Source: Thermoplasmatota archaeon
GTDB taxonomy: Archaea > Thermoplasmatota > Penumbrarchaeia > Penumbrarchaeales > Penumbrarchaeaceae
NCBI GenBank assembly: GCA_029762535.1
Contig: JARVGK010000004.1
Span: 17,633 to 81,632, forward strand
DNA: 64,000 nucleotides
Direction: 5' to 3'
Both the position numbers and the translations under genes were made by a program. This document shows positions 2,205-23,266 of this stretch, one piece after another (within the stretch, counting starts at the first letter, position 1; each line of letters opens with the position of its first letter). Under the pieces are notes generated by a model. That model was not told where the DNA came from and made no database searches. It saw only the letters and a program-made list of their open reading frames with translations.

Positions 2205-2219
2205 ATTATAACTTCCAAA

Positions 2220-3386: not shown

Positions 3387-4485
3387 CCTTTAATAAATTC
3401 TGGTAGGTTCCATATATCTGTGCGATGATTATTCTTGATTCATATCTTTTGAAAGCTTCTTCTTTTATGCTTTTTGACATCTCATAGAACATATCATAAT
3501 TCTTGAATACGTATTCGATCTTATTCATCAGATCATCGGGATCCTTCTGTTTAACTATGAAACCGTTTTCCCCGTTCCTTATGACCTCCTTCAAAGCGGC
3601 AACATCCGTGGATATGATCAAACAGCCTCCTGCCATGGCCTCCATCACAACAGTTGGGCATCCTTCCGGATAATAAGATGGATAGAGAAAAATATCGCTA
3701 TCATTGAATTTTTCTACCTTCTTTTGATCGGGATAGTAACCTAGGTAATTCACCTTTTCTTCAATACCATATAACTTGATTTTTTCCTCAAACCTTACTC
3801 TGATTTCATCATTAACGAACCAGCCGATGAAATCCATTCTGAAATCATACCCTTTCAGATGAAGTCCATGAAGGGCCTCAAGGATCACCAATATCCCCTT
3901 CTCCTCCTGCATCCTGCCGACATATAAGAGATTTGGAGTCTTGCTCTTTTTCCTTTTATAACCTGAGAAGAGATCTCCATCAAAGAAGGTCTTGCTAACC
4001 TCGATCTTGGAGAGACCCAAATTCTGAAGCGAATCCTTGAAATCCTCAGCGAGAACGTATAAGGAATCAGCCTTTGAATATATACAATGAAAAATTATTC
4101 TTCTTATTGTGGATTCTTTCAGTTTCTTGTAATATCCTTTATCCCAACCATGGAAGAAGACCAATACTTTTTTTCTCATGGCTTTTGAGATCAAGATATA
4201 TATGGAATCCCTCACTATAGGAACTGTGAAGAAAGATGGATTCAGATGCACAATTCTCGAACTTCTATCGGTAATTATTTTTCTGATGAATCTAACTAAA
4301 TCTTTTGGGTATGATAATACATAAGGTATAATTTGCTTAGTGCTCTGTTCTTTTGATATGCCCTGCTTGAAGTGTTCAATAGCTATATCATCATGAGAAT
4401 AGTTCTTGAAGAAGATCCTAAAAAAATTGGTAACTCCACCTGGCACTTTCAAGTCCCTGGTCATAATAAGTGCCTTCGGTTTCAA
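3370..4485 (-). CDS. Glycosyltransferase family 4
   Basis: GGV N-terminus, VGR...EKG, EGCPTVVMEAMAGG (Ex7E). TTG start. Confidence 0.92.
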   Translation of the reverse strand: MKPKALIMTRDLKVPGGVTNFFRIFFKNYSHDDIAIEHFKQGISKEQSTKQIIPYVLSYPKDLVRFIRKIITDRSSRIVHLNPSFFTVPIVRDSIYILISKAMRKKVLVFFHGWDKGYYKKLKESTIRRIIFHCIYSKADSLYVLAEDFKDSLQNLGLSKIEVSKTFFDGDLFSGYKRKKSKTPNLLYVGRMQEEKGILVILEALHGLHLKGYDFRMDFIGWFVNDEIRVRFEEKIKLYGIEEKVNYLGYYPDQKKVEKFNDSDIFLYPSYYPEGCPTVVMEAMAGGCLIISTDVAALKEVIRNGENGFIVKQKDPDDLMNKIEYVFKNYDMFYEMSKSIKEEAFKRYESRIIIAQIYGTYQNLLKGDLHK

Positions 4486-5654
4486 CGATGATCACCATTA
4501 CCTAAACATTTTACCAATGCCAGTAAGATCCAGCTGTCTCCCCATCTGGTGTAATCATTGTTGTTTTTGATAATAGGCCATACTTGATGTCTGGTTCTAC
4601 CATCTGAGCGTATCATTCTTTTCAGGGTCCAGGATAATACTTTCTCGAACTTATCTCTAACGAACGGGAACATGGATGAATTGTCCTTTAATGTTATCAT
4701 TGCCTGGGCCTGATTGTGGATATCTATCGGCCACTTCCTGGGATATCGATAGTATGTTCTGCCCCGATCATCGATGGTCTTTATATAGAATCTCAGCCCC
4801 TTCTCGATCCTTGGGAGGATCCGTTCATCCTTGTCGATCTCCCAGATGGATCTCAGGCCATCGAGGATGAAGCCCTGGTGAAAGTCGAACTGCTTCCTGA
4901 ACTTGCCTGTAGAGGGATCTATACTGTAATACCACGATCCATCGGCGTTCTGCTTGGATAATGTGAAGTTCAGAGCCTTTTCTGCAATCTCAAGGATATC
5001 ATCCTTCTTTAGAACTGTTCCAGCTCTGAAGAGATAACTGGACCCGAGTATGTTGGCGTTATGAACGACGTTATTATCGTGAGGTGAATAACTGAAGCAT
5101 ATACCCTCATCGTCTTTGTGGATGTTGAGGTCGTTCATGATGAAATCGGCTATTCCACTTATCGTTCTCTTCAACTCTGGATTGGCATCGAAATTATAGA
5201 GGTCGATCAGAGAATGGCCGATAAAGCTTGTCACAACTATTGAAGGCTCATATCTGGGTATGAACTTGTGAAGGTCCTGCCATGGAAAATGATAACCCCA
5301 ACAAGGTCCGGAATAATCCATGTTCTGATTCTCAATGATCCATGAATGTATAAATTCGATCTCTTTTTCGAGATCTGGAATGATGTCATGATCTTTACCT
5401 TTCTTGAGGATCAAAAGGGCTCTGAGCAATAGACCCATAGTCTTCGGGTTCACATCCTTTTTTATCCTCAGTATTGACCTGAAGTTTATTGGTGAATAGA
5501 CGAGCAACTGGGTGGATGCGATCCTTATCCATCTGTTCTCGAACGAGGTTATAATGGGACTGTTCAGGCAGTCATAGGGGTCGTATCCTTTGTAATCGTT
5601 TCTTTTGATGTTTTGATAGATCGATCCGATGATCCTCTTTGTATCGTTTTCCAT
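4482..5654 (-). CDS. Polysaccharide-locus alpha/alpha-toroid protein of unknown function
   Basis: GYDPYDCLNS, WGYHFPWQ, VHNAN, QNADGSWYY, DFHQGF and WPIDIH motifs. Start moved to ATG 5654 (MENDTK) to avoid overlap with the upstream gene. Confidence 0.7.
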   Translation of the reverse strand: MENDTKRIIGSIYQNIKRNDYKGYDPYDCLNSPIITSFENRWIRIASTQLLVYSPINFRSILRIKKDVNPKTMGLLLRALLILKKGKDHDIIPDLEKEIEFIHSWIIENQNMDYSGPCWGYHFPWQDLHKFIPRYEPSIVVTSFIGHSLIDLYNFDANPELKRTISGIADFIMNDLNIHKDDEGICFSYSPHDNNVVHNANILGSSYLFRAGTVLKKDDILEIAEKALNFTLSKQNADGSWYYSIDPSTGKFRKQFDFHQGFILDGLRSIWEIDKDERILPRIEKGLRFYIKTIDDRGRTYYRYPRKWPIDIHNQAQAMITLKDNSSMFPFVRDKFEKVLSWTLKRMIRSDGRTRHQVWPIIKNNNDYTRWGDSWILLALVKCLGNGDHR

Positions 5655-5667
5655 GATAACTACCCAT

Positions 5668-6693
5668 TCAATCCTCAAGTGCGGATCCCAGCTTTTCAAA
5701 GAACTCTATCTGGACCTTCTTGGGATCGTGTCCATGTGTGTCGTTAATGTGCTTTTTTTCAAGTATATGATCGATGATCTCATCAACATCCCTTGAATGG
5801 ACCATCATTCCTTTTTCTATCAGGTCTTGATCTACAGTTAATAATTCTTTGCCAGGAAAGAAGGAAACGGCCTTCCTCCCGATTATGGCTCCCTCCCTGG
5901 CCATCGTCCCTGATCCAGTTAGGACCCCCATTGAGTAATATATCAGGTCCAGACCATTCAACGGCTTTGGAGGTATATGGACGTTTTTCCTGCCGCTGAT
6001 GTTCCAATCGCTCCTGTCCCTGGGCAGGAATACGATGTTTATTCCTTCTTTTTCGAACCGATCCAAGAGGATTTCGGTTATGCTCTTTTCTTCTTTCACA
6101 TAGAATGATGCCAATGCCTCAGGCCTTATGACGATATAGTCTTTGAACGGTAGCTTGCTGAGTATATCTTTATTCGGTATATGACCGGATATGTAAATGT
6201 CCTCTTTGTAACCGTCATAGGTCAGGATCCTCGATCGGGAGAAATGCTTCTTGAACCGATGTTTAGTACATTTGGGAACTATCAGGATATCGGTTTTCGT
6301 CTTCAACCATGATTCTATCTTCTGTATTCTGCCAGAGCCTTTGTTGTATTTGACATCATTATCAAGCATTAGAATCGTTTTCTTTCTCCGCATCCATCCA
6401 ACGGCAACGCTCATGGGATTCTCGAATGATAATGCGGTATCGAACCTCTTCAGATGAAGAGAAAGTTGTAACGTCCTTATTGCAATGGATGATGTTTTCA
6501 AGAAAGCGTTCTCGTAATCCTTGCCTATCGCATCGCCTTTTATTCCAAGATCATTTGCGATGGATAGTGTCTCGCCCCTGTCTCTCATTGTAACGTTAAG
6601 CCGGGCATTTTTGGAGATCCTGTCTATGACCGGTTTGAAGAACAGGGGATGCGAAGGGTTGAGAAGATCTATCCAAACGGTTCCATTCATCAT
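5668..6693 (-). CDS. DUF354 family GT-B-fold protein
   Basis: WIDLLNPSHPLFF N-terminus, YDGYKE, RPE and GSGTMAREGA motifs. Confidence 0.85.
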   Translation of the reverse strand: MMNGTVWIDLLNPSHPLFFKPVIDRISKNARLNVTMRDRGETLSIANDLGIKGDAIGKDYENAFLKTSSIAIRTLQLSLHLKRFDTALSFENPMSVAVGWMRRKKTILMLDNDVKYNKGSGRIQKIESWLKTKTDILIVPKCTKHRFKKHFSRSRILTYDGYKEDIYISGHIPNKDILSKLPFKDYIVIRPEALASFYVKEEKSITEILLDRFEKEGINIVFLPRDRSDWNISGRKNVHIPPKPLNGLDLIYYSMGVLTGSGTMAREGAIIGRKAVSFFPGKELLTVDQDLIEKGMMVHSRDVDEIIDHILEKKHINDTHGHDPKKVQIEFFEKLGSALED

Positions 6694-6694
6694 C

Positions 6695-8251
6695 TCATTC
6701 CTTCATATACATATCTTTATTATTCTTTATCGATTCCCGATCTATCTTCCCATTTGCTGTAAGCGGCATATGATCGATAAAATAGACTCTCTTGGGTATC
6801 ATGTATTTCTCGAGCCTTTCGGAACAGAATCTGAGAATGTCATCCTCTTTGACCTCTTTTAAACTCTGTGCAAAGCATATGAACCTGTTACCGAGAATAT
6901 AATCGGCAATGGGAATGACCACACAGCTTGAGATCCCATCCATTGATGTAATTACGGCTTCAACTTCCTGTGGGGTCGCTTTCTCACCCCCTATCTTTAT
7001 TACCTGATCCTTCCTTCCAACAAAGTAGAGATCCCCTTCTTCATCGAACCTGAAGAGATCACCTGTTAACAATATCCTTTCACCAGTGATATCGTCTTTG
7101 ATGATAGTTCTCTCTGTCTCTATGGTATCGTTCCAGTAACCGATCATGATATGCGGTCCTTTCACAGCTAGTTCGCCGATCTTTCCTGGTTCATGAATAG
7201 GTTTTCTGTCATCGTCTAGTAGAATGACATCGGTGTTCGGGATTGCTTTACCGACCGATGTCGGCTTTTCCATTATCTTACTTGGATCGAGGAACGATAC
7301 CCTCTTGCATTCGGTCAATCCATACATAGAATAGATAGAAACGCCAGGAAACATCTGGATTAGCTTTTCGATGGTCTTTGGAGACAATGCTTGTGCGGTG
7401 TTCGTTATGTATCGTAGAGAGGATAGATCGTAATTTGTTATGTCTCCAAGTCTTAGTAAAATCTCTGCCATCGATGGAACGATCGGGAATCCGGTCACTC
7501 TCTCTTTCTGGATCCTCTCGAGTAGTTGATTGAAGAAAGTGAAGGACTTTTCAAGGATTAGCGTTCCACCACTTTTAATGGACATTATCGCCTGATACAG
7601 ACCATAATCGAAGGATAAAGGTATGGCGTTTAGTATAACATCATTCTCATCGTTGTTGAGATATTCGATTATCGAGTTCGATGCGGCGTCGATATTTGCA
7701 TGGCTCAGAGTCACTCCTTTTGGTTCTCCGGTGGACCCGGATGTGAACATGATCAGTGCGACATCTCTTTCATTCGGGGACTTCATCTCGCGTAGGTTAT
7801 CCGGACTTTTACATAGATCAGCGAATATATGATATTCGTTCGTTATCTCTTTATCTATTAAGCCATCTCCAAGACCAATTATGATCTGCCTATCGGATCC
7901 CTTCACGCTATCATTTACCATATCTCGGTTCAGATCATCCGCCATTATACATTTTGGATCGCATTTGTCGATAATTGTTTTGAGTTTTTCCTGCTTTATT
8001 TGGGGGTTGACTGGAACGAATATTGCCCCCATCTTCGAGGCTGTAAATAATGATATAACGGTTTCTGGTTTGTTGCCGGTCATCACAACGACGCGATCTC
8101 CGCCTCTTATGCCTATTCTTTCCATATTGGATGATAGATCGTCCGTTATCCTATCCAATTCGTCATAGGTATATGTCTGATCTCCGAACTTGATCGCGAT
8201 CTTATCCCTATATCGATGAGCGGATTTCGTGAGGTATTCGCTGAGTATCAT
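6695..8251 (-). CDS. Adenylate-forming enzyme (ANL superfamily), putative aminoacyl/acyl-ACP ligase
   Basis: FTSGSTGEPKG (A3), PLSFDYG (A4-like), YGLTE (A5), TGD (A7), GRKD, and PLTANGKIDR (A10 Lys). Likely start ATG 8251 (MILSEYL). Confidence 0.9.
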   Translation of the reverse strand: MILSEYLTKSAHRYRDKIAIKFGDQTYTYDELDRITDDLSSNMERIGIRGGDRVVVMTGNKPETVISLFTASKMGAIFVPVNPQIKQEKLKTIIDKCDPKCIMADDLNRDMVNDSVKGSDRQIIIGLGDGLIDKEITNEYHIFADLCKSPDNLREMKSPNERDVALIMFTSGSTGEPKGVTLSHANIDAASNSIIEYLNNDENDVILNAIPLSFDYGLYQAIMSIKSGGTLILEKSFTFFNQLLERIQKERVTGFPIVPSMAEILLRLGDITNYDLSSLRYITNTAQALSPKTIEKLIQMFPGVSIYSMYGLTECKRVSFLDPSKIMEKPTSVGKAIPNTDVILLDDDRKPIHEPGKIGELAVKGPHIMIGYWNDTIETERTIIKDDITGERILLTGDLFRFDEEGDLYFVGRKDQVIKIGGEKATPQEVEAVITSMDGISSCVVIPIADYILGNRFICFAQSLKEVKEDDILRFCSERLEKYMIPKRVYFIDHMPLTANGKIDRESIKNNKDMYMKE

Positions 8252-8264
8252 GGAATACACCGTA

Positions 8265-8624
8265 TCAGCATATGGAAACTGCAACGGCAACGGCCATATC
8301 TTTGATATGTGAAATGGAAGCCTCGATCCTCTGTATTTTCATTTCGGATGCGATCCTGGCCACATCTCCTGAGAGAGTGACTTCGATCCTATCCCCTTCG
8401 GTCTTGACCGTACCGATCTCCCTCCAGTCCGGAGACCTTTCTTCGGATATCCCCAAGGACTTGTAAACCGCTTCCTTCAAGGCGAATCTGGCAGCAAAAT
8501 GCAAAATATCGTCGTTCTTTGATGAGCAATAACTAATCTCTCCTTCTGTGAATATCCTGGAGAGATCTCTTATTTTACCGAATGATTCCACATCAACGAG
8601 ATCGATCCCTATGCCCTTTATCAT
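8265..8624 (-). CDS. acpS: Holo-ACP synthase (AcpS-type 4'-phosphopantetheinyl transferase)
   Basis: 119 aa with GIGIDLV, FTEGEISYC, FAARFALKEAVYKSLG and SISH motifs. Confidence 0.92.
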   Translation of the reverse strand: MIKGIGIDLVDVESFGKIRDLSRIFTEGEISYCSSKNDDILHFAARFALKEAVYKSLGISEERSPDWREIGTVKTEGDRIEVTLSGDVARIASEMKIQRIEASISHIKDMAVAVAVSIC

Positions 8625-10435
8625 AATTTATGCACCTTCGATCCCCTGATCAGTATCCTTCCATCGCCCTGATCGTATATGGTGTTGTTGATATCATCGA
8701 AGATATTCTCCTGGATCCCCCAGTAATGCATATTTCCTTTGATCTTATCATTATCTATTATCAGGTCGGTCCTTAATGTGTAATTTTCATCTCTTAAGGA
8801 TCCGGGCGCTTCCCTGTACATTCTCATTTTCTCGGGTACTTGCAGGCTTGATGAGGCGACCGGATAGAAAGATCTGAATGATACGAAAACGGTTTGATTC
8901 CCAAGGGAGAAATCCTCGATGAACTCCCCGGGAATTATCGATCCGTTATCCTCGATATAACCGAAACCGCTGATTGTCGTATTTACTGAATAATTGAGGT
9001 TGAAAAGAATGGGTCCTGTTATCATCATCGCGATTATGATTATCATGAACCGGCTGTTTTTGAACATTCTTCCGATATATTGTGGAGTGTTCACGAACAT
9101 TACCTGAACCGCTCTCTGGCCAAGGATCGCATAGTTGAAGAATCCTCCTGCCATGAAAGCAAGTGAACCTCCGAAGAGGTAGATGTCGAAGAAGTTAATA
9201 TGTTTCTTGGAGACTTTGATAAGACTGATGGTGATGAGGGCGACAAATAAGAATAAAATAATTATATTGACATATCTCAGTAACAGGTGGATCTCCCCCG
9301 GAACTAGGTCATATAATGGATAGTTCTCAAAGCTTGCCAGCCCAACTTTTGTTTTACTCCCAAGGAAATATGATACTATGAACCACGTCTCACCTCTCTC
9401 ATCGCGTGTATATAGAAGATCCTCTATGAATTCGAATCTGAAGAACCTTGTTTTGTAGCCATAAATGTAAATGGCGATCAAAAGTATCAATGAAATATCT
9501 TTCTTTCCACTTATCCCGATAAATGATTCGATTTTATTCCGGGTAAAATATTGGATCGAGATGAAATGTTGTTTCACATCCTTGGCAATGTTGAATAATC
9601 GAAATAAAACATGTCCTATTGAATCACTTGTCCTTAAGAATTCCTTGATCTTTTCCAATTTATCTGAAGTTGATATTTCGGTTGTCTTTTTGATGATCAC
9701 GGCCATGAGGAAGAAGAAGAACATGAAAGGATGTGAGTAAACGCAAAGAATGAAGAATACTATTGTTAAATAGTAGTATATTACATTCTTTGTTTCCTGG
9801 AGTCTTACATAGGACCCTATGGTAAGTAACATGAATATCAATCCCACGAATTGCGGGATGAATTGAGAATTGATAAAGAAAAAGGTCAGAATGATGTAAG
9901 CAGCCGGATAGATGATGAAACTCGCCGGATATCTCCTTGAGAACTTGACCATTGTCAATGGCAGTACCAGTGGGATCGCAAGTAGGTAAACGAAGAATCC
10001 TAAATTTGTTGTCCCGTAGTATGATAACCCGAGAACATCCATGATAACCCTACCCGAAGTGAAATATATCGGGCATGTGAAATATGTGAAAAGGGCCGGA
10101 TCTATGTAGATATTGCGTGATAGATGTCGCATGAACATCGATGTAGCGCCGATATCTGTCTGCTGCGGTACTATGATGAAGAACAGGTTGAAAGCGTAAA
10201 AGACAAAAAAGAACAGAACTGAAAGTAGCATCACTGACACTTTTGATCTCACCTTTAAAGCTATGAAAACGATCACGCCGGAATATAAAAGGAGCAGGAT
10301 CCAGAAAGACATTGGTACGCTTTCTATTATAGATCTTCCTCTGTCGATACTTGCGGGAAAAGCGAATAGGATTATATCGACCAGAATAACAAGGAGGATC
10401 ATTATGACGAAAAATAGGTATTTGTTGATCTTCAT
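8621..10435 (-). CDS. Polytopic membrane protein (putative GT-C-fold transferase or glycan polymerase)
   Basis: 604 aa, roughly 11-13 hydrophobic segments, a loop Asp after the N-terminal TMs (PQQTDIG) and a soluble C-terminal domain. ATGA overlap with acpS. Confidence 0.6.
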   Translation of the reverse strand: MKINKYLFFVIMILLVILVDIILFAFPASIDRGRSIIESVPMSFWILLLLYSGVIVFIALKVRSKVSVMLLSVLFFFVFYAFNLFFIIVPQQTDIGATSMFMRHLSRNIYIDPALFTYFTCPIYFTSGRVIMDVLGLSYYGTTNLGFFVYLLAIPLVLPLTMVKFSRRYPASFIIYPAAYIILTFFFINSQFIPQFVGLIFMLLTIGSYVRLQETKNVIYYYLTIVFFILCVYSHPFMFFFFLMAVIIKKTTEISTSDKLEKIKEFLRTSDSIGHVLFRLFNIAKDVKQHFISIQYFTRNKIESFIGISGKKDISLILLIAIYIYGYKTRFFRFEFIEDLLYTRDERGETWFIVSYFLGSKTKVGLASFENYPLYDLVPGEIHLLLRYVNIIILFLFVALITISLIKVSKKHINFFDIYLFGGSLAFMAGGFFNYAILGQRAVQVMFVNTPQYIGRMFKNSRFMIIIIAMMITGPILFNLNYSVNTTISGFGYIEDNGSIIPGEFIEDFSLGNQTVFVSFRSFYPVASSSLQVPEKMRMYREAPGSLRDENYTLRTDLIIDNDKIKGNMHYWGIQENIFDDINNTIYDQGDGRILIRGSKVHKL

Positions 10436-10448
10436 GATAGAACACCAT

Positions 10449-11648
10449 TTATCTTTTTATCGAACTCTTGTAATGTGCCTTGAGGTCGGATGCCATCTTC
10501 TCATAGTTTCTATGATCCAACACCCATTCCCTTCCTTTCATACCCATGTGCCTTGAATTATCGATATCGTTCATAAACTTTGTGATTGCATTGATGATCT
10601 CCGGTAAGGAATATGGAGGGGCGATGCCTCCTCCGCTTTGTTCTATCACTTTTTGTTGGTCTCCGATCTCTTTGTTGGCCACGACCGGTACTCCTCTTGA
10701 TAGGTATTCCACGACCTTGGTGGGTGATGATACGCGATATGCCAGTATCGGTGGTAGTATCGAAAGGCCCAGATCGCTATTATCTATTAATGTTGTGACC
10801 TCTTCAAATGGAACTTCATCGATCAGCTTCACTTGGTTCTTTAGTCCAAGCTCTTTAATTCTTCGTATCAACTTCTCACTGTAACTCTTTCTGAATACCT
10901 TACCTACGATCATTAGTTCTACTGGTACATCACTTTTCTTTATAAGACCATTTATAATTTCCAGAAGGAAGTCTATCCTTCTTACAGGGGTTATCTGACC
11001 CAGGTAAATCATTCTGAATCTTTTATCATGATCGTATTTATACAGGATCCTTTTTTCCATCATGGACCTTGCCGGGCATAATGGTAAAGGATATATCTTA
11101 TCTGTTGGAACGCCCCTCTTTGTATAATATTTGCCCATTTCTTCCGATATTGGGTGGAATATATCCGCTCTTTTGATCAACCATGCTAATATCGGTTTTT
11201 TTAAATATGCCTTTGCCGTCTTGAATAATGTCAAGATGGATGGCATTGATTTTAACTCGTTCAACTCCATGTCAAAGAACAATGACGATAGATAATATGC
11301 GAATTTTTTACCATGTGCTTTCGCAAGAAAGAAACCGATTATCCCTTCCAAAATACCGTCATTGCATAATACGATGTCTATATTGGGTTCACTCTGTAAA
11401 ATCTTTGAAGCAGTTTTGTATTTTTTATATACGGCCAACCTTGATATTACATCGCCGATATTCCCTTTGAGGGGGGTTGGCTTAATAAGATGGATCTCAT
11501 TGTTTTTCAATGTAATTGTTTTATTCGCATCACCGTATGCTATCCAGTGTACCTTATCATCACCGGAGGCGAAATATCCCATGAACAGCTGATTGAGTCT
11601 GACTCTTCTGAATGGATATTTCTCCTTCGGCAGTAATAAAATATCCAT
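10449..11648 (-). CDS. Glycosyltransferase family 4
   Basis: YLGQITPVRR and SSPTKVVEYLSRGVPVV motifs. Confidence 0.88.
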   Translation of the reverse strand: MDILLLPKEKYPFRRVRLNQLFMGYFASGDDKVHWIAYGDANKTITLKNNEIHLIKPTPLKGNIGDVISRLAVYKKYKTASKILQSEPNIDIVLCNDGILEGIIGFFLAKAHGKKFAYYLSSLFFDMELNELKSMPSILTLFKTAKAYLKKPILAWLIKRADIFHPISEEMGKYYTKRGVPTDKIYPLPLCPARSMMEKRILYKYDHDKRFRMIYLGQITPVRRIDFLLEIINGLIKKSDVPVELMIVGKVFRKSYSEKLIRRIKELGLKNQVKLIDEVPFEEVTTLIDNSDLGLSILPPILAYRVSSPTKVVEYLSRGVPVVANKEIGDQQKVIEQSGGGIAPPYSLPEIINAITKFMNDIDNSRHMGMKGREWVLDHRNYEKMASDLKAHYKSSIKR

Positions 11649-11661
11649 TCGATATTCCTCA

Positions 11662-12876
11662 TTATTTTTTCATTATGTCATAGATCAATTTGTTAAAACC
11701 GAAAATGACTTTGTATCGAATGTTCGATCCGATCTTATTATCGGATCTTAAATCCTTCCCTTCATCCGTTAGAATTCTTAGGATCTCTTTAAAACACCTC
11801 TTAACAAGGTCTTTCGATCCATCCATACCATATTTGAGATGCATGTGGAATTTTGGAGATACTAGAGTGCCCATTTCATTGATAAGTCCGGTTGATATCA
11901 GATTTGGTGCTATTATCTTCACCGGTAATAAAAATCTATGGGTCCATTGATAATCAGCATCACATTCCTTTGATAATGATCTGTTGATTTTCAGCTGGAG
12001 ATACGATCTCTTCTTCTTATCATGTATAAATGGTGGAATGTTGTAAGGCCGGGGTTCGAAACCTTGAAACGTGAAGGCATGGAAATCCATGTAGAATATC
12101 GGTTTTATCCTTTTACAGTAATTCCATATATGGTGGCTTTCGGGACATTCTTTTTTCGTGTTTCCAAAGAATTTCCAGTAAAAGTTTATCCCGTTTGTAT
12201 TCGATCCCTGTGTATTATGAAAATAACCATCCGGATTGACTATCGGGATGAGTGCGATGTTGAAATGATCCCGAGATCCGTCCTTTAAATTCATTTCAGA
12301 TAATACCTCAGCGATGGCTTCCAAGGCAATGAGATCGTTCTCCGGAGGATGGAAACCTGACAGGAATAGCAGATACGGCGATCCTTTATCTTTTACATAC
12401 TCAAATACCTTTATTTCCCTCCCTTCAACGGTCTTTCCTATTGAGATCTCATTTGCGCCTCCCTTCAAAGCCTTTTCCCGAATGGATTCCAATATCTCTT
12501 CATGGTCCATGGGTATGTAGTTGCTGATGAATGTCGAACCGGGGGCGATCCTCAATTCGAATCGATATTTTCCGGGGAGGAGCATCCTTCCATCGATCTC
12601 CTCTTTGATATATTTCTCCTGATCTTCGTTCCTTATCCAGAGCCATCCCAAATCCTGATTCATATCTTCTTTATCATTACATCCTATGCAGAATTTTACA
12701 TTAACGGGAACATCACCATCATTTCTGGCCATGAAGTGAAAATGTAGATTGTAATCGTGATCCTCGATGTATCCTATTGTTATCGGATCCTTCTTTAATT
12801 CTATGAAAGCAACATTTTTTTCGACCCTTCCGGATCCGAGCATGGATCCCTTGAAATCGCCGTCTATGGTTATCAT
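11662..12876 (-). CDS. M14-family zinc hydrolase (carboxypeptidase/deacylase-like), divergent
   Basis: IGKTVEGREI, HPPE (HxxE), PIVNPDG and MDFH zinc motifs, with an N-terminal beta-rich domain. Confidence 0.8.
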   Translation of the reverse strand: MITIDGDFKGSMLGSGRVEKNVAFIELKKDPITIGYIEDHDYNLHFHFMARNDGDVPVNVKFCIGCNDKEDMNQDLGWLWIRNEDQEKYIKEEIDGRMLLPGKYRFELRIAPGSTFISNYIPMDHEEILESIREKALKGGANEISIGKTVEGREIKVFEYVKDKGSPYLLFLSGFHPPENDLIALEAIAEVLSEMNLKDGSRDHFNIALIPIVNPDGYFHNTQGSNTNGINFYWKFFGNTKKECPESHHIWNYCKRIKPIFYMDFHAFTFQGFEPRPYNIPPFIHDKKKRSYLQLKINRSLSKECDADYQWTHRFLLPVKIIAPNLISTGLINEMGTLVSPKFHMHLKYGMDGSKDLVKRCFKEILRILTDEGKDLRSDNKIGSNIRYKVIFGFNKLIYDIMKK

Positions 12877-12881
12877 GGATA

Positions 12882-14162
12882 TCAGATCGCCTTAATATCG
12901 ATAACTGAGTTCTTCTTTCTGAGTAGAAATACTGTCAAGCCGCTCATTATGACAACTGTTGTCAAACCCACTATCATCGTGGAGTATGCTATTCCGATAA
13001 GCCCGAACCATTGAAGGAACAGATAATTCAACCCGATGTTCACAACCGGGGGTATCCAGTATAGATACAGGAGTTTCAGCTCGTTACCTGTCGCCTGGAG
13101 CGCATTGTAGAAAGGCAGCTCGAAATATTTGAAGGCGAGGTAGAATATCAGCACGGAGAAAATCGGCGCGGCTTTAAGATATTCATCGGAGAATATGATG
13201 CCTATTATTGGCTCCGATGCCAATGACAGGACTGCCGCTCCCAGGATAACGACCGCGCCCATCAGGGTCCCCCATTGGAACAACCTCTTGACCTGAATGG
13301 TATCCTGGCTCTGGAATGTCTTGATGAACATCGGGAACGTGGCGATGAACAGAAGGTTCCTCAGGATCACGCCCGGACCCATTAGATTGACCGCGATGCT
13401 GTATATACCCACATCCTCGTAAGGCCTCAAATTGGATATCATGAGTATGTCTATGGATGTCGCCAGATGACCAAGGAATAACAGTAAGCTGAAGATTATC
13501 ACGGGTTTTATCAGGCTCCATCTCGTATCCAGCATCATCCTGAACGTTATTCTTGCGAATCTCCTCGATATCCTGATGTTCAAGATCAGGGAAATGGCGA
13601 GGGTCAGAATACTTGCTATCAGCAGGATCGTCAGGCCAAGGTTGAAAACCACTACTATTATCGTGAATACCAGGTAGATCAGACGATGGATAACACCTAT
13701 TAAAGCATGATACTGCATCCTCTCGTGTACCTGATAGATTATCATGTAAAATCCTTCTAATGAACTTAGAAGGAGAGTTATGGAATAAATTGCGATCAAT
13801 ATCTTGGTGTATGGGTCGTAATTTACGAATAGTAAACCGATCAAAGACAATCCGATCGATATTGATCCGACCAGTACCCTCAAACCGACGGTGTTCGAGA
13901 GTATATCATCGAGCTTCTCCTCGTTCTTGACGCCTTCCCTGATTAGAACCTTGTTGATCTGGGGAAGGGTAAAGAACAGGAATAATGAGATGTACGATGT
14001 GACGGTGGAATAGATACCGTAATCTCGCACCCCGAGATATCGGGTGATCAAAATGAGCCCGATCATGGCCATTATCTGGGCAATAACATTTCCAACAACA
14101 AGATAAGAGAAATTCTTCATGGCCAGCTTGATCCTGCTGCCAAGGGTCATGTCGGCCTTCAT
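12882..14162 (-). CDS. Wzx/RfbX oligosaccharide flippase
   Basis: RYLGVRDYG, DILMI...DVGIYS and NIGLNYLFLQWFGLIGIAYST motifs, with about 12 TMs. Confidence 0.92.
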   Translation of the reverse strand: MKADMTLGSRIKLAMKNFSYLVVGNVIAQIMAMIGLILITRYLGVRDYGIYSTVTSYISLFLFFTLPQINKVLIREGVKNEEKLDDILSNTVGLRVLVGSISIGLSLIGLLFVNYDPYTKILIAIYSITLLLSSLEGFYMIIYQVHERMQYHALIGVIHRLIYLVFTIIVVVFNLGLTILLIASILTLAISLILNIRISRRFARITFRMMLDTRWSLIKPVIIFSLLLFLGHLATSIDILMISNLRPYEDVGIYSIAVNLMGPGVILRNLLFIATFPMFIKTFQSQDTIQVKRLFQWGTLMGAVVILGAAVLSLASEPIIGIIFSDEYLKAAPIFSVLIFYLAFKYFELPFYNALQATGNELKLLYLYWIPPVVNIGLNYLFLQWFGLIGIAYSTMIVGLTTVVIMSGLTVFLLRKKNSVIDIKAI

Positions 14163-14215
14163 CGGATCAACTCAATGATAAAAGGAACGGATAATTTCTC
14201 ATGATAAGGTCATCA

Positions 14216-15067
14216 TCATTGATCTCTACAGGCTTTGATGAACCTCATCGATCCATTGTATGATAAGAATTCAACATGGGAAAAGATGTCGCTTCTCTTG
14301 AACAGCCTCCCCACCAAATTCTCCTGACCTTCTCCGAACTCAAAAGCAAGGGATCCCCCTTCCTTCAAGATAGATGAAGATTCATTGATCAATCTGTTCA
14401 AGATATCGATCCCGAATGGGCCTCCGTCAAGGGCTATGTGCGGTTCATGGTCCTTGATCTGGGGATCCATCCTCTCGATGGAGGATCTTGGAATATAAGG
14501 CGGATTGCACACTATCATATCAATCTTGGAGGATAGGCCCATTTCCCTTATCGGAGAAAGGAGATCCCCCTCAATGATATGTACCCTATCATCAAGACCG
14601 TATCTTTGCACGTTGAGTTTTGCAACTTCCAGGGCATCGGGGGATATGTCTATAGCATAGACCTCCGCGTCTGGGTTCTCCAGGGCTATTGAGATCGCGA
14701 TATTGCCGCAGCCGGTCCCTACATCGACTATGATTGGTCGATAATTTTTTAACGCGATAGAAGCGATATGATCCCTGGCCAGATCGACCAGTAAGAATGT
14801 TTCCGGTGTGGGGATCAGTGTATGATTATTGACGATGTATCTTCTTCCCATGAACACCGCTTCCCCTAATATGTATTCGGGCGGTGTGTTCTCGTATCTC
14901 TTCCGTAAGTAATCGTATTCCAGCATGCGGTTGAGCACATCCTCCGGATCCAAATCCGTTATCTTTCCATCCAGAAGATGATCGAGCAATCGCATGAACT
15001 CGGCGAATTGGTCCTTGCCATCGATCCCGTCCATGTGATCGAATACCTTCTTCCACCCTTCGTTCAA
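14216..15067 (-). CDS. Bacterial-type PrmC/HemK-like N-methyltransferase
   Basis: PPEYILGEAVF, LIPTPET, DVGTGCG, NPPY, EPHIALDGG and EFG..Q motifs. Confidence 0.88.
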   Translation of the reverse strand: MNEGWKKVFDHMDGIDGKDQFAEFMRLLDHLLDGKITDLDPEDVLNRMLEYDYLRKRYENTPPEYILGEAVFMGRRYIVNNHTLIPTPETFLLVDLARDHIASIALKNYRPIIVDVGTGCGNIAISIALENPDAEVYAIDISPDALEVAKLNVQRYGLDDRVHIIEGDLLSPIREMGLSSKIDMIVCNPPYIPRSSIERMDPQIKDHEPHIALDGGPFGIDILNRLINESSSILKEGGSLAFEFGEGQENLVGRLFKRSDIFSHVEFLSYNGSMRFIKACRDQ

Positions 15068-15072
15068 GAATA

Positions 15073-16062
15073 TCAGACCTCCCTTGAAGGAGGCAGATCG
15101 ATGACCCCAAATAGTTCTGGACGCATGTGAAGGTATGATGTACTCCTCTTCTTCTGCTCGATGTCCTTGTATATCCTGAGGACCTGACCAAGGCTAAGTC
15201 CCGTTGTCTTCGAACATTCATCAAGTCCGACATCGTTGTTGTAGCAATAGAGCATGAGGTCCATAGTCCTCAATGGTATGGAGAAATAGAACTCCTCTTG
15301 TGTTTGCTCCATGGGGAAAGTATCGGTCGTTGGGGTCCTTTTTATGATCTCATCCGGTATCTCGTAATGCTCCGCCAGCTGATATACCTGGCTTTTGTAA
15401 AGATGGGCTATGGGTTTGAGATCGGCGGCACCATCTCCGTTCTTGACGAAGAACCCGAGCTCATACTCCAGGCGATTGGGTGTTCCCACGACCGCATAGT
15501 TCAGCCGATCCGCGTGATGGTATTCCATCATCTTTCTCACGCGCTGCTTGAAATTGGATGCGGCTATAACGCCGAGGTAACTGGAAGAGGTCATGCGTTT
15601 ATTTACAGTACTTCCGTCAGGTAGTTCGACGACGATCTGGGAGATGCTTATCCTATCGGATGAGAGGATGTTGGGCAGTATCACCTTGCACTTCCAGCTG
15701 TCCTCATATTCGGGTATCACCTCACGAATGGACATCCCCCGTCTGGTGTAGCATCCCGATGCAACAAGGATGGATGTTATATCCTCAACGATCGTCTCGA
15801 TCCCGAGATGGTCCGCGATGATTCGGCCCAATCTGTTGGTATCCTCTTTTCCCTCCCTCTCGGGCATAAGGATGCCGAATACCCGTCCGACCCCAAGGGC
15901 CTTTGCGCATATCTCAGCACAGACCGAGCTGTCAAGTCCGCCGGAAAGTCCGATGACCACGCCCTTCTTCCTCATCCTTGACAGAACAGAATCCGAAATA
16001 GCTCTCTCAAGCCTCTCTGCCTCTTTATCGCAGTCCATGAAGAGCGGTTCGTGATCGTTCAT
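15073..16062 (-). CDS. NadE-like (NH3-dependent NAD synthetase fold) ATP-dependent amide synthetase, paralogue 1
   Basis: GLSGGLDS PP-loop, NFKQRVRK, GTPNRLE, FFVKNGDG, PIAHLYKSQVY and PTTDT motifs, plus an insertion of about 45 aa. Confidence 0.88.
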   Translation of the reverse strand: MNDHEPLFMDCDKEAERLERAISDSVLSRMRKKGVVIGLSGGLDSSVCAEICAKALGVGRVFGILMPEREGKEDTNRLGRIIADHLGIETIVEDITSILVASGCYTRRGMSIREVIPEYEDSWKCKVILPNILSSDRISISQIVVELPDGSTVNKRMTSSSYLGVIAASNFKQRVRKMMEYHHADRLNYAVVGTPNRLEYELGFFVKNGDGAADLKPIAHLYKSQVYQLAEHYEIPDEIIKRTPTTDTFPMEQTQEEFYFSIPLRTMDLMLYCYNNDVGLDECSKTTGLSLGQVLRIYKDIEQKKRSTSYLHMRPELFGVIDLPPSREV

Positions 16063-16069
16063 GTCCTCT

Positions 16070-17041
16070 CTAATCTCCTTCGAACATATTAGGAGGGAGC
16101 ATCCTCAGATGCCGGGATGCTGTATGCTTCCTCTCGAAATCCGTAAAAGCCCTCTTCACCTGCTCCGTTCCAAGTCCCATTATCGAGGCTGTTCCTCGCT
16201 CGTCCATGTCATTCTCCCAGGCATAGAGGAGCATATCGAGCTTCTCGTACGGCATCCTGAAGAAGAAAGCCTCGTCGGAAACATGGGAGTTGAAAGTGTC
16301 CGGGGACGGTGGACGGTCGATAATACCCTGATGAACGCCAAGATGCCGTGACAGGGAATAGACCTGTGTTTTGTAAAGATGGGCAAGCGGCTCGATATCC
16401 ACCCCCCCGTCCCCGTATTTGACGAAATAACCCTGTATCATCTCGGTCCTGTTCGTGGTCCCGCACACGGCATGGTTCATGGACTCGGCGTGATAGTACA
16501 GGTGCATCATCCTCGTCCTCTGCTTGGTATCCGTTGCGGCCAGTATTACTTGGGAGTCTTTCCTTCTGAGCCTGGTCGAGAATACGATGTCATCCCCTTC
16601 CATAATGTCTATGGAAAAGAAGTTGATGGAGTCCTTCTCAAGGATATTCTCGGGCAGGTAAAGCCTGATCCTGTGGTTTGATGAGTATGCCGGATATATT
16701 TTTCTGATGATCTCATCCCGTTTTTCGTATGTGCCGAACGCCTCAAGAACGCTTGTGATATCCTCGACAACATACTCTATCCCAAGGGATTTGGCATGCT
16801 CTCTGGCAAGTCTTTCGCTAATGGGATTCGAATCTTTTTCAGGCAGTATAACGCCAAACACATTCTTGCTACCAAGGGCTTTAACGCACAGGGTAAGGGT
16901 CAAAGCGGAATCGATGCCACCGCTAAGTCCTACGATATAGCCCTCCCTCTTGTGTTCGTGTAGGTATTCCTTGAGGAAATGACAGATGCGATCCGCCTCT
17001 TTTTCCGGATCGATATTCATCACCTCTTTGTTTAAAGGCAT
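16070..17041 (-). CDS. NadE-like ATP-dependent amide synthetase, paralogue 2
   Basis: GLSGGIDS, DTKQRTRM, GTTNRTE, YFVKYGDG, PLAHLYKTQVY and PSPDT motifs, with the same insertion. Confidence 0.88.
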   Translation of the reverse strand: MPLNKEVMNIDPEKEADRICHFLKEYLHEHKREGYIVGLSGGIDSALTLTLCVKALGSKNVFGVILPEKDSNPISERLAREHAKSLGIEYVVEDITSVLEAFGTYEKRDEIIRKIYPAYSSNHRIRLYLPENILEKDSINFFSIDIMEGDDIVFSTRLRRKDSQVILAATDTKQRTRMMHLYYHAESMNHAVCGTTNRTEMIQGYFVKYGDGGVDIEPLAHLYKTQVYSLSRHLGVHQGIIDRPPSPDTFNSHVSDEAFFFRMPYEKLDMLLYAWENDMDERGTASIMGLGTEQVKRAFTDFERKHTASRHLRMLPPNMFEGD

Positions 17042-17059
17042 ATGATATCACCTTGAGGA

Positions 17060-17323
17060 TCAAAGCCCCTTCTTTCTTCGGACGAATTTTTCGATATTGT
17101 CGATGGTATCCAGGTTCTCCGGGATTATTTCATCATTTTCTATGACCATTTCGAACTTTTCTTCCAGGAATTCGATGACCTCGAGTATTCCCGTGGAATC
17201 GACGATCCCGGTGTCCATTAAAGATAGGCCGGGATCCAGTTCCTTGAACTTGTCGGAAAGATAGAAATTCGATGCAATGAACGTTCTTACTGTCTTGACA
17301 ATATCATTGGATCCATCTGTCAT
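17060..17323 (-). CDS. Acyl/aminoacyl carrier protein (DltC-like ACP)
   Basis: 87 aa acidic protein with GIVDSTG phosphopantetheine site, LEEKF and IPENLDTIDNI. Confidence 0.92.
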   Translation of the reverse strand: MTDGSNDIVKTVRTFIASNFYLSDKFKELDPGLSLMDTGIVDSTGILEVIEFLEEKFEMVIENDEIIPENLDTIDNIEKFVRRKKGL

Positions 17324-18724: not shown

Positions 18725-18736
18725 TTCTATATGACC

Positions 18737-19932: not shown

Positions 19933-21084
19933 TCACCTGTTATATAATTTTAAATATACGTTGTTTAGTAGGCTGCCCCTATCGTCCCTGAAGCTTTGAA
20001 TGGTTCTCCAATCGGTTATGGACCCTTCGAACTCATCTCTGCTCATTCCAATTTGACATAGGAACCAATCAAGGTTTGGCGGGTCCTTATTCTCATCGTT
20101 GTAGTTTTTCTCATACAGCATCGCTTCGTCCCTCTTCATCGATCCCAGTCGGATCAATGAACTGTTCTTGCATGTGGCATCCGATAATCCTTTTGCCTTT
20201 TTTGATTGAGCGTACGAGGCTATCTTGCTTGCCTTGCAGTCCATATGTTCTACCTGATCCGAAGGCTCTGTCCACCCCATCTCTTTCTTTATGGTACCGA
20301 GTATCTCATCGTAGGACGGCCCAAGATGATCGTATATGCTCACATGCCTCGGAGTGGTCGGATCGGGAATCCTCAATAGAGCTGTTGAAAGATGTACGAT
20401 CCTTTTCAGGTCCCATTTTACCGTGAACTGTTTCATGGCGTCGACATTGAACGATAACTTCTCATTCTCGACCACTCTTGAAAAGAAGGCTGCATCACCG
20501 TTTTGGAAGAGTTCCGGAACTCTGGCAAGATAAGAATATCTTGCTCCCGTACCTTTTATGATCAAGGGAACGTCGAACATATCAGCTCCCATCTTCGATA
20601 CTATCTCGATCCCTCTCATGCATGGAGGACAGAACGTTCCGGTTTTTCTTAAGAAAAGGCCGTATAGTTCCATCATCTCCTTTGGATTCGGACCATAGAT
20701 AAGATGATCCGATCCGGTTTTATTAATGGCATTTCTTATGTTCTGTTTTGCATGGTCAGAAAGTAGGCCGTTGTCAAAAGTTATGGATAGGCTTTTCATG
20801 CCGTATACCTTGTCTGCAAGATAGAGGCAATAAACGCTATCCTTTCCTCCGCTCAAAGGCACGACGCAATCGTAAGGTCTCTTTTTCTTCTTAGCCCATA
20901 GAACAAGTTCATCGAGTTTTTTTTTTCTTTCTTCTTTCTCATTATCTAACTTTGTGAGCAGTTTCTCATAATAATTGCAATTATTGCATACACCTCTATC
21001 GTCCAACTTTACGCTTGGAAGGGTTGTGGGCATCACACACTTGTGACATCTAATGAAATTTTTTTCTTTATTTGTATCAACCAT
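19933..21084 (-). CDS. N-acetyl sugar amidotransferase (WbpG/WbuX/PseA-like PP-loop ATPase)
   Basis: CHKC...GVCNNC, YDCVVPLSGGKDS, FDNG, CPPC and HMDC motifs. Start ATG 21084 follows GGAGG. Confidence 0.85.
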   Translation of the reverse strand: MVDTNKEKNFIRCHKCVMPTTLPSVKLDDRGVCNNCNYYEKLLTKLDNEKEERKKKLDELVLWAKKKKRPYDCVVPLSGGKDSVYCLYLADKVYGMKSLSITFDNGLLSDHAKQNIRNAINKTGSDHLIYGPNPKEMMELYGLFLRKTGTFCPPCMRGIEIVSKMGADMFDVPLIIKGTGARYSYLARVPELFQNGDAAFFSRVVENEKLSFNVDAMKQFTVKWDLKRIVHLSTALLRIPDPTTPRHVSIYDHLGPSYDEILGTIKKEMGWTEPSDQVEHMDCKASKIASYAQSKKAKGLSDATCKNSSLIRLGSMKRDEAMLYEKNYNDENKDPPNLDWFLCQIGMSRDEFEGSITDWRTIQSFRDDRGSLLNNVYLKLYNR

Positions 21085-21122
21085 TCCCCTGCCTCCTGAT
21101 ATAAAATGGTGATGAATTTGGA

Positions 21123-22438: not shown

Positions 22439-23266
22439 CTACTCACCTGTAAGGGATGTACGATCGCCTCTTCCCCCAAGGACATCGATGATCCTCTTGC
22501 AAAGAAGAGGGGCCACCTCGGCTGAGAATTCCTTGTTGGGATGGGAATTGGTCGATGAGACGGCATATTCGTCCTTGAGATATAGGGATCCCCCGGTCTC
22601 CAGGGAATAGAAGTCCCAGAGGAATATATTGTCCCCTTTCTCGTCCCAATCGTTCTTCACCCAGTTGACGAACCCCTTCATCCTCTCGGCCTTTTCGGGT
22701 TCAGTGTTGTTCCTGACCAGTGCCGGACCGGTCCAGAGTATGAATTTCGTGTTCGGGAATTCGTGCATCTTCACCTTCAGCGCCTCGTACTGCAGCTTGT
22801 AGTTCTCGATGCTCTTGACGGAGGATGATACATCCCCCTTTCCCGTATCCTCCTCTATTTTCGCCACCGGGAAGCAGTGCTTGAATACGACAACATCATA
22901 ATTATCGACTATCATCTCAAGGGTCGGCTCTCTCATGTATGCTTTATCGCCCGCGTTCTTGACCCATATGTTCCAGTAGTCATATGGATAGTTGTTCCAG
23001 CCGTAGGGATCCCTCTTTGGAAAGGATTGCTCGATGATGTTCAGGTTACTGTCATGATCCCTGATCCCTTCTACTACACCGCCCTCCCAGATATTTCGCC
23101 CTGTGCTGTGATGGAGATAGAGTATGTTGATATCGCCTCCGCCCGGATCCTTCAGGACCGGTTCCGATCTGGATAGTTTGTTTATGAGGAACCTAAGACC
23201 CAGAACGGTGGATAGTAGTATGATGAGGGAAAGGAATGCTATGGGTATGATATGTCTTCTCTTCAT
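22439..23266 (-). CDS. Membrane-anchored extracellular protein of unknown function (possible SGNH-like hydrolase)
   Basis: N-terminal TM after MKRRH (GGAGG RBS), with LHHSTG, FKHCFP and NSHPN motifs. Confidence 0.6.
   Translation of the reverse strand: MKRRHIIPIAFLSLIILLSTVLGLRFLINKLSRSEPVLKDPGGGDINILYLHHSTGRNIWEGGVVEGIRDHDSNLNIIEQSFPKRDPYGWNNYPYDYWNIWVKNAGDKAYMREPTLEMIVDNYDVVVFKHCFPVAKIEEDTGKGDVSSSVKSIENYKLQYEALKVKMHEFPNTKFILWTGPALVRNNTEPEKAERMKGFVNWVKNDWDEKGDNIFLWDFYSLETGGSLYLKDEYAVSSTNSHPNKEFSAEVAPLLCKRIIDVLGGRGDRTSLTGE

Follow-up and report, generated by a model that had tools for sequence, protein, structure and literature searches.

A carrier-protein cassette with NadE-like enzymes, probably for surface glycan tailoring, on a glycan island of a Thermoplasmatota archaeon

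What would an archaeal locus for surface glycan synthesis do with a stand-alone carrier protein, an adenylating ligase and two enzymes that resemble NAD synthetase? The question was raised by a stretch of 64,000 nt (the window) from a Thermoplasmatota archaeon (assembly GCA_029762535.1, contig JARVGK010000004.1, positions 17,633 to 81,632), which is part of contig C47 of an archaeal assembly of 2.96 Mb that is 93% complete. The genes concerned form a ten-gene module at positions 6695-17323 of the window. This cassette probably loads an aspartate-like amino acid on the carrier protein, amidates the free acid using the NadE-like enzymes and decorates a surface glycan.

The cassette and its enzymes

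All ten open reading frames (ORFs) of the module were found on the minus strand, with spacing from a 4-nt overlap to a 53-nt gap. The co-oriented, tightly packed arrangement given in the preliminary description of this DNA was reproduced, and the families proposed there were confirmed:

17060..17323, minus strand: stand-alone carrier protein, 87 aa, with the phosphopantetheine serine in GIVDS (NCBIfam acyl carrier protein (ACP) models)
16070..17041, minus strand: NadE-like PP-loop enzyme, type A, 323 aa (PF02540 E 8e-57; PRK00876 393 bits)
15073..16062, minus strand: NadE-like PP-loop enzyme, type B clade, 329 aa (PF02540 E 4e-48; PRK00876 464 bits)
14216..15067, minus strand: HemK/PrmC-like NPPY N-methyltransferase, 283 aa (TIGR03534 210.7 bits, cut-off 199.1; CNPPY motif)
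12882..14162, minus strand: Wzx-type flippase (PF01943 E 1.8e-24)
11662..12876, minus strand: M14-like zinc hydrolase (PF00246 E 7e-7, weak)
10449..11648, minus strand: GT4 glycosyltransferase (PF00534 E 2e-17)
8621..10435, minus strand: polytopic membrane protein, 604 aa, without a Pfam or NCBIfam match
8265..8624, minus strand: AcpS-type phosphopantetheinyl transferase, 119 aa, overlapping the upstream gene by 4 nt (PF01648 52 bits, cut-off 25; TIGR00556 77.9 bits, above cut-off)
6695..8251, minus strand: predicted VinN-type adenylating ligase (ANL), 518 aa from ATG 8251 (PF00501 E 8e-83; PF13193)

For the ligase, a longer ORF with a TTG start reaches 8290; the likely start is the ATG at 8251, which gives 518 aa as in the database copy P0004. 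GIVDS in the carrier protein and PLSFDYG in the ligase, both singled out in the preliminary description, were present; PLSFDYG occupies ligase residues 224-230, and the Asp of this A4 motif is D228. No curated NCBIfam model reached its cut-off for the ligase: the best-scoring one, TIGR03098, gave 395 bits against 592, the amino-acid adenylation domain model gave 249 bits against 317, and the DltA model (TIGR01734) gave 217 bits against 559.85. Among solved structures, the best relatives of the whole ligase were LgrA, an A domain of a nonribosomal peptide synthetase (NRPS), at 264 bits and VinN at 260 bits; 4-coumarate (4CL)/FadD fatty-acid ligases gave 155-166 bits and DltA 131-133 bits. The earlier proposal of an amino-acid-type ligase, with the A4 Asp present and a dedicated carrier protein and AcpS as partners, was supported. 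For the substrate region (residues 150-420), VinN was clearly top with 160 bits, against 126 bits for the next structure. The alignment of VinN with the ligase is gapless up to and through the substrate loop; that of LgrA requires a one-residue insertion after TECKRV.

When the PDB chain numbering was corrected for a 16-residue tag offset, VinN residues D230, F231, S299, K330 and R331 corresponded to ligase residues D228, Y229, T298, K329 and R330. The SFDYG of the ligase, which contains D228, aligns with SWDFG of VinN, and TECKRVS aligns ungapped with TECKRIS, including the Lys-Arg pair and the shortened beta13-beta14 loop. At the positions of VinN F231 and S299 the ligase is not identical but differs by conservative exchanges, to Y229 and T298. 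In the primary paper on VinN, K330 and R331 are reportedly the residues that hold the free carboxylate of the substrate. The substrate of VinN, 3-methylaspartate or L-Asp, is bound in the manner of a beta-amino acid, with D230 holding the amino group, K330 and R331 as key residues in a beta13-beta14 loop that is shortened by one residue, and F231 and S299 pushing the substrate towards this loop (review, PMC11253843). In VinN-type pathways, the tethered acid is then decarboxylated at its free carboxylate (PMC10662134).

By its pocket, the ligase is predicted to be a VinN-type beta-amino-acid:ACP ligase, of amino-acid type and not DltA-like. FD[YF]G together with TE[CTA]KR was found in 118 of its 120 best database homologues. 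Among 62 ligases from cassettes of this kind, the largest pocket class was the D-K-R class of the window ligase, and the pocket string SFDYYNTLCKR was identical in 21 of its 29 members. R330 was kept in 59 of the 62 cassette ligases and D228 in 32. Since R330 is kept across the classes, a substrate with a second carboxylate would be the common theme of all of them, to which the D-K-R class would add an amino group. A variant ligase without the amino-binding Asp (pocket HHAF...ATR) was seen in four Methanosarcinaceae loci (L100, L109, L115, L116), where the cassette adds a FabG-like reductase, a 377-aa unknown protein and an LbH acyltransferase; the acid that this variant loads is probably another one, a dicarboxylic or oxo acid without an amino group.

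The NadE-like proteins exceeded the cut-offs of PF02540, TIGR00552 and PRK00876 (the last at 313 bits) and retain the PP-loop SGGxDS, R-x-R and GFFVKYGDG motifs; no glutaminase domain was found in them using Pfam. The canonical nadE on contig C4 (208.8 bits) gave a contiguous match without an insertion, whereas the island copies match in two pieces around an insertion of ~58 aa. Because a canonical nadE without the insertion sits on contig C4, the two island genes are read as extra copies and not as housekeeping NadE. In a quick maximum-likelihood tree of NadE proteins, archaeal and bacterial sequences were interleaved, and a B clade with 100% support in the SH-like approximate likelihood-ratio test (SH-aLRT) included every copy linked to AsnB together with the nadE of Sinorhizobium pSymB. 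The remaining NadE-like proteins, an A grade, accompany a WbuX-like enzyme. The pair in the window consists of one type A and one type B protein, and its type A copy falls together with the type A copies of Thermoplasmatota and bacteria.

The carrier protein gave no match to PF00550, being below the PP-binding threshold, and matched NCBIfam ACP models with E-values down to 4.5e-13; the best of these models were lipid and natural-product ACPs. Its best solved relatives were type II peptidyl/aminoacyl carrier proteins (2my5 at 9e-9, PigG, 4h2s), with DltC marginal, and the DltC model (NF003464) gave 16.5 bits against a cut-off of 68. Ser43 of the DS motif was invariant in 30 homologues. The preliminary description had noted no ketosynthase, condensation domain or DltB, and indeed no ketosynthase, condensation domain or MBOAT was among the Pfam matches of the island ORFs; neither MBOAT (PF03062) nor a Condensation domain was found anywhere in the 93%-complete assembly. 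The analogy with the Dlt system that it had drawn, with an ACP resembling DltC, did not survive, given the scores of the DltA and DltC models and a genome in which no DltB/MBOAT was found. Within the phylum, the carrier protein was found in 7 of 401 genomes, and a NadE-like gene adjoined it in 4 of the 4 informative loci.

AcpS lies within the cassette in most of the archaeal copies seen (L007, L013, L021, L039, L040, L101) and in few bacterial ones, which fits hosts without a housekeeping AcpS. A second phosphopantetheinyl transferase domain was found in the genome, in a 3325-aa ORF on contig C17 (~6500-10700; L002-L006) with at least four tandem PP-binding domains. The ORF looks like a megasynthase of polyunsaturated fatty acid or polyketide synthase (PKS) type in an archaeon, so the archaeon is not otherwise free of carrier proteins. 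The methyltransferase of the cassette matched HemK structures at 1e-28. HemK-type relatives of the NPPY methyltransferase methylate a glutamine amide nitrogen. In a complex prediction, a dimer of the type A NadE-like protein with the carrier protein scored 0.39, and one control scored 0.47; the value is given no weight for or against binding.

The pathway that we propose from these assignments would begin with priming of the 87-aa carrier protein by AcpS. The VinN-type ligase would adenylate an aspartate-like amino-dicarboxylic acid, most likely L-Asp taken as a beta-amino acid; the carrier protein would hold it as a thioester of the side-chain carboxyl, so that its amino group and its other carboxylate stay free. 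The NadE-like PP-loop enzymes would adenylate this second carboxylate and, with ammonia, turn it into a carboxamide; the HemK-like NPPY methyltransferase would N-methylate the amide, and an acyltransferase would move the acyl group off the carrier protein and onto a sugar of a Wzx-dependent surface glycan.

Recurrence of the cassette and gene fusions

A scan of species-representative genomes for the NadE-like protein returned at least 517 relatives, and the survey described here covered the best 80 loci, anchored on the NadE-like gene. These loci are distributed over more than 10 bacterial phyla, including Planctomycetota, Bacillota, Chloroflexota, Aminicenantes, Zixibacteria, Ignavibacteriota, Acidobacteriota and Actinomycetota, and over the archaeal Thermoplasmatota, Methanosarcinaceae and Pacearchaeota. 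Co-occurrence in other genomes, on which the preliminary description had made its proposal depend, was found: of the 80 loci, 63 had a carrier-protein homologue and 60 a ligase homologue, and ACP and ligase were both within 6 kb in 33 of the 44 loci that have at least 4 kb on each side. Usual gene orders were ACP-ligase-NadE, optionally followed by a 331-aa WbuX-like enzyme and by GNAT or LbH, and AsnB-NadE-ACP-ligase. Within four genes of the NadE-like gene, ACP and ligase were each found in 56 of 78 loci and a UDP-sugar dehydrogenase in 3. Most of the 80 loci are polysaccharide loci (Wzz/Wza/Wzc, glycosyltransferases or LbH), in bacteria, as the preliminary description had it for exopolysaccharide loci, and also in archaea; in many of them an LbH or GNAT acyltransferase adjoins the cassette.

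Several of the genes also occur as fusions. Ligase-NadE fusions were found as five protein clusters of 834-900 aa, three of which have the FDYG...TECKR pocket, and amino-sugar pathway genes adjoin one fusion copy. A methyltransferase-NadE fusion of 633 aa (P0127) was found on six contigs in the order ACP-ligase-AsnB-fusion. These fusions tie ligase, NadE and methyltransferase into one pathway. NadE-glutaminase (P0132), AsnB-NadE (P0133) and NadE-condensation (P0130) fusions were set aside as probable read-through or frameshift products, because several genes are split on contig L120 and because an N-terminal nucleophile glutaminase cannot follow another domain. On that bacterial contig, positions 8001-11139 hold ACP, ligase, AsnB and NadE, followed by a condensation domain and a carrier-thioesterase protein, an arrangement that hints at NRPS-linked use on a contig with many split genes.

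The homologue with an experimental record is that of Sinorhizobium meliloti, where the operon asnB-SMb20651-SMb20650-nadE was described by Ramos-Vega et al. 2009, as cited in PMC7232532. In that system, AcpS makes the holo form of the ACP SMb20651, co-expression with the ligase SMb20650 yields acylated ACP in Escherichia coli, and SMb20650 cannot replace FadD (PMC7232532). The preliminary description knew of no biochemical characterisation; nothing beyond this reported priming and in-vivo acylation was found, and the function of SMb20651/SMb20650 is still described as open (PMC5686131). On pSymB-type replicons, asnB-ACP-ligase-nadE is an isolated four-gene operon with no sugar genes within 7 kb. 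The window ligase is 41% identical to the pSymB one and has the same pocket, the ACPs are 38% identical, and the type B NadE proteins 52-53%.

These observations bear on two other explanations. Taken at face value, the annotation would be a fatty acyl-CoA ligase and two NAD synthetases that are neighbours by chance. This is hardly credible: the ligase has an FD motif of NRPS type and not of acyl-CoA ligase type, its Sinorhizobium homologue does not stand in for FadD, a canonical nadE is present elsewhere in the genome, and synteny across domains and gene fusions speak against chance. Alternatively, the cassette could provide a carrier-bound building block for a small metabolite or a lipid, with its position on a glycan island being incidental. 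The Sinorhizobium operon, which stands alone, would suit such a role, as would the bacterial contig with condensation, carrier and thioesterase domains after the cassette and the lipid and natural-product ACPs among the best models for the carrier protein. However, Wzx, glycosyltransferase and membrane genes stand between the cassette genes of the window in a single closely packed, co-directional run, polysaccharide loci make up most of the 80, and frameshifts abound on the contig with the condensation domain, so that we give this explanation a slim chance.

The glycan island and the fate of the free carboxylate

Bases 1-30,000 of the window have a G+C content of 33-48%, compared with 54-60% in the remainder, and this low-G+C part is a glycan island. 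Several island proteins have their closest named relatives in metagenome-assembled genomes of Thermoplasmatota, and no mcrA was found in the assembly. The ten genes belong to a longer minus-strand run from 17323 to 1104, with 15 consecutive genes spaced from a 32-nt overlap to a 53-nt gap. The limits 6695-17323 set in the preliminary description thus proved too narrow, as the DUF354 and GH88-like genes continue past the ligase here and in the metagenomic relative L007, and the WbuX-type and UDP-sugar dehydrogenase genes are at 19933-22400. The neighbouring features are as follows:

5668..6693, minus strand: DUF354 protein, 1 nt after the ligase (PF04007 E 5e-29)
4482..5699, minus strand: GH88-like protein (weak PF07470 match)
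17780-19588, minus strand: pair of a GT2 glycosyltransferase and an adjoining GT2-sized protein without Pfam recognition
19933..21126, minus strand: WbuX/WbpG/PseA-type N-acetyl sugar amidotransferase-like PP-loop enzyme (TIGR03573 194 bits, cut-off 203)
21123..22400, minus strand: UDP-sugar 6-dehydrogenase, a source of uronic acid (PF03721, PF00984, PF03720)
22439..23281, minus strand: exported or membrane-anchored protein of an unnamed family, 280 aa, without a family match (motifs LHHSTG, FKHCFP, NSHPN)
23526-25510: divergent pair of GNAT and sugar-transfer ATP-grasp genes
25500-29133: second Wzx unit with RimK-like ligase, GT4 and Wzx

In L007 the order AcpS-ligase-DUF354-GH88-like is kept at 45-56% identity (DUF354 56%, GH88-like 49%), and GH88-like homologues were also found in L017 and L047. 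For the M14-like protein, which weakly matches the cytosolic-carboxypeptidase-like structure 4a37, none of the 80 comparison loci holds a homologue, and its gene is locus-specific and outside the conserved cassette. The atlas neighbours of the 604-aa membrane protein are archaeal hypothetical clusters, one with DUF2206 in 10% of its members, and homologues adjoin Wzx in G065 and G125; by these relatives it belongs to an archaeal family, and it gave no MBOAT match. Homologues of the protein at 22439-23281, 47-59% identical, adjoin cassettes in the bacterial loci L057, L068, L078 and L082, while L051 and L073 hold more distant ones, and it may be an extracytoplasmic partner of the pathway. The WbuX-type protein of the window is 23-28% identical to the 331-aa PP-loop enzyme of type A cassettes elsewhere. 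Family searches of the window ORFs found no AsnB.

Two further observations concern the wider island. The GT2 gene and its unrecognised partner are kept as a pair in the archaeal relatives L009, L018, L023 and L101, with GT2 62-66% and the GT2-sized partner 45-50% identical. Beyond the window, on the preceding part of the contig (L121, C47:1-17700), positions 577-6908 hold a FemAB-like GNAT, a sulfotransferase, an LbH acyltransferase, an ADH/GFO-IDH-MocA (WbpB-like) fusion oxidoreductase and a second UDP-sugar dehydrogenase, a set that hints at a diamino-uronic acid pathway, although an aminotransferase was not seen there.

The UDP-sugar dehydrogenases at 21123-22400 and upstream on the contig, and another that directly precedes ACP-NadE_B-MT in the relative G065, allow for two independent modules. 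The ligase, carrier protein and AcpS would then supply an unusual N-acyl group for an amino sugar, while the NadE-like enzymes would make a uronamide from C6 of a uronic acid with ammonia and the methyltransferase would methylate that amide. One sugar in the N-glycan of Methanoculleus marisnigri is a diamino-glucuronic acid that is amidated at C6 and bears an unusual N-acyl group; the review that describes it names no enzymes for it (PMC11407970). Independence of the modules is disfavoured by the existence of ligase-NadE fusions, by the Sinorhizobium four-gene operon without nearby sugar genes, by the dehydrogenase counts near the NadE-like gene compared with those of ACP and ligase, and by the conserved carboxylate-binding Arg retained in the ligase pocket. 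We consider this arrangement unlikely, though not so far-fetched as to be passed over.

The preliminary description had proposed glycan aminoacylation, with the tethered amino acid amide-linked to a uronic acid, possibly by the NadE-like enzymes. The idea of tethering an amino acid for glycan decoration stands, but the coupling to uronic acid through NadE is doubtful and less parsimonious. In this scheme, the NadE-like enzymes would adenylate the carboxylate of the uronic acid, and the amino acid, carrier-bound or released, would attack it through its amino group to give an aminoacyl-uronamide, like the threonine-amidated mannuronic acid of Methanococcus. A tethered substrate with a free amino group, as the D228 pocket suggests, and NadE-like proteins without a glutaminase domain agree with it, and amino-acid-amidated uronic acids do occur in archaeal N-glycans (PMC11407970). 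However, the thioester would then serve no purpose and an additional release step would be required; the methyltransferase-NadE fusion and the NPPY type of the methyltransferase suit a primary amide product, the Sinorhizobium operon has no uronic acid genes, and the free carboxylate implied by the conserved Lys-Arg pair would be left unexplained. We therefore find it improbable.

Amidation of the tethered acid fits better, because the Lys-Arg pair points to a carboxylate left free, some ligases are fused to NadE, sugar genes are missing from the Sinorhizobium operon, and UDP-sugar dehydrogenases are rare near the cassette. Its steps differ in support. Priming and loading are supported by the pocket residues and the Sinorhizobium experiments. 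For amidation by NadE, we infer the step from synteny, the fusions and the conserved carboxylate-binding Arg. N-methylation would rest on one fusion and on adjacency, and transfer to a sugar on the frequent LbH/GNAT neighbours in other loci. The substrate, the amidation site, the methylation target and the acceptor are all predictions. We give about an even chance to the reading in which the module is the archaeal version of a widespread carrier-protein tailoring cassette, interrupted by glycan-assembly genes, and works by the full amidation scheme.

Several points weigh against the proposed amidation of the tethered acid. A cassette usually has two PP-loop enzymes, for one free carboxylate on a beta-tethered aspartyl group; with NadE A and B here and a WbuX-like enzyme nearby, at least one of them must act otherwise. 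The UDP-sugar dehydrogenase genes in the island make amidation of a uronic acid possible, and uronic acids amidated at C6 are known from archaeal N-glycans (PMC11407970). The pocket argument depends on one solved relative and includes two conservative substitutions, and the substrates of the cassette enzymes are predicted from sequence. Among the 44 well-flanked NadE-like loci, 11 had no ACP plus ligase within 6 kb, and a survey anchored on NadE cannot show that NadE is needed by every ACP-ligase pair. An LbH or cassette-type GNAT acyltransferase (~350 aa) was sought in the window and none was found; on the contig, the closest LbH gene lies at a distance of ~21 kb. GNAT297 and the upstream FemAB-like gene were considered as cassette acyltransferases and rejected, as both were unrelated to the cassette-linked LbH/GNAT proteins by BLAST.

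On a bolder reading, the two PP-loop enzymes of each cassette would act in series on the carrier-bound aspartyl group: one would make the carboxamide, the other would reactivate it to give an amidine (or a related thio or nitrile derivative), and the NPPY methyltransferase would then N-methylate the product. The glycan would then carry a cationic N-methylated amidino-acyl group. We regard this serial scheme as speculative, with a small chance of being correct; neither carrier-protein pathways nor NadE homologues are known for chemistry of this kind.

Significance and comparison with known systems

Literature on the cassette was sought in O-antigen, NAD synthetase and carrier-protein contexts, and nothing specific was found. 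A preprint on terminal amidation domains was considered as a precedent and set aside, as it concerns an acyl-ACP-reductase-like fold and not NadE. The cassette represents a real, conserved and experimentally almost untouched pathway. If the proposed pathway is correct, hundreds of genes in polysaccharide loci that are annotated as NAD synthase or long-chain acyl-CoA ligase are misnamed, and acids bound to a carrier protein become a new class of substrate for NadE homologues. Bacterial and archaeal surface glycans would also bear an aspartyl side group, amidated and in some cases N-methylated, to which structural glycobiology has so far assigned no genes. For archaea, it would mean a complete bacterial-type carrier-protein system with its own AcpS, outside lipid synthesis, on a low-G+C glycan island. 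Homologues in the culturable Sinorhizobium, Geothrix limicola and Methanosarcina sp. KYL-1 make the system directly testable.

The DltABCD system shares the loading of an amino acid on a small dedicated carrier by an adenylating enzyme for decoration of a cell-surface polymer. It differs in that the DltA and DltC models score far below their cut-offs here, that no MBOAT (DltB) was found in the genome, and that the pocket is of VinN type and not of D-Ala type. The exosortase A-associated module (TIGR03098 ligase, ACP and TIGR03099 decarboxylase) is likewise a ligase-plus-carrier module in exopolysaccharide loci, but the TIGR03098 score of the window ligase is below the cut-off of 592, and a PLP decarboxylase and an exosortase were not seen in the island.

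With the short, NH3-dependent NadE (Pyrococcus horikoshii 2e18, Campylobacter jejuni 3p52), the island copies share the PP-loop, the catalytic motifs and the overall domain. They differ by the ~58-aa insertion, by their presence beside a canonical nadE in the same genome, and by being linked, and in some relatives fused, to ACP ligase or methyltransferase families.

Starter loading of the VinN/VinL(/VinO) and FlvN type, known from the macrolactams vicenistatin and fluvirucin, also combines a stand-alone adenylating enzyme with a stand-alone carrier. The amino- and carboxylate-binding pocket residues (D, K, R) and the shortened beta13-beta14 loop are shared, with conservative exchanges at the bulky aromatic and Ser/Thr positions, and in both cases the tethered acid would subsequently be modified at its free carboxylate, amidation being our proposal for the archaeal case. 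No PLP decarboxylase (VinO), VinM, VinK or PKS was among the Pfam matches of the island ORFs; as these macrolactam partners are not seen in the island, the ligase would work like VinN but outside that pathway. Rather than losing its free carboxylate, the tethered acid would have it amidated by a NadE-like enzyme, and the context is an archaeal glycan locus.

The known counterpart is the Sinorhizobium pSymB operon, in which homologous ACP, ligase and B-clade NadE genes are kept together. The Sinorhizobium operon has AsnB and one NadE, and is without AcpS, methyltransferase and glycan genes, whereas the archaeal cassette lacks AsnB, has NadE of both types and is interrupted by genes for Wzx, a glycosyltransferase and a membrane protein; its type A NadE is present instead of AsnB, as in other loci with both types. 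New in the archaeal copy, relative to this counterpart, are the split cassette, the twin NadE types, the AcpS of its own and the methyltransferase.

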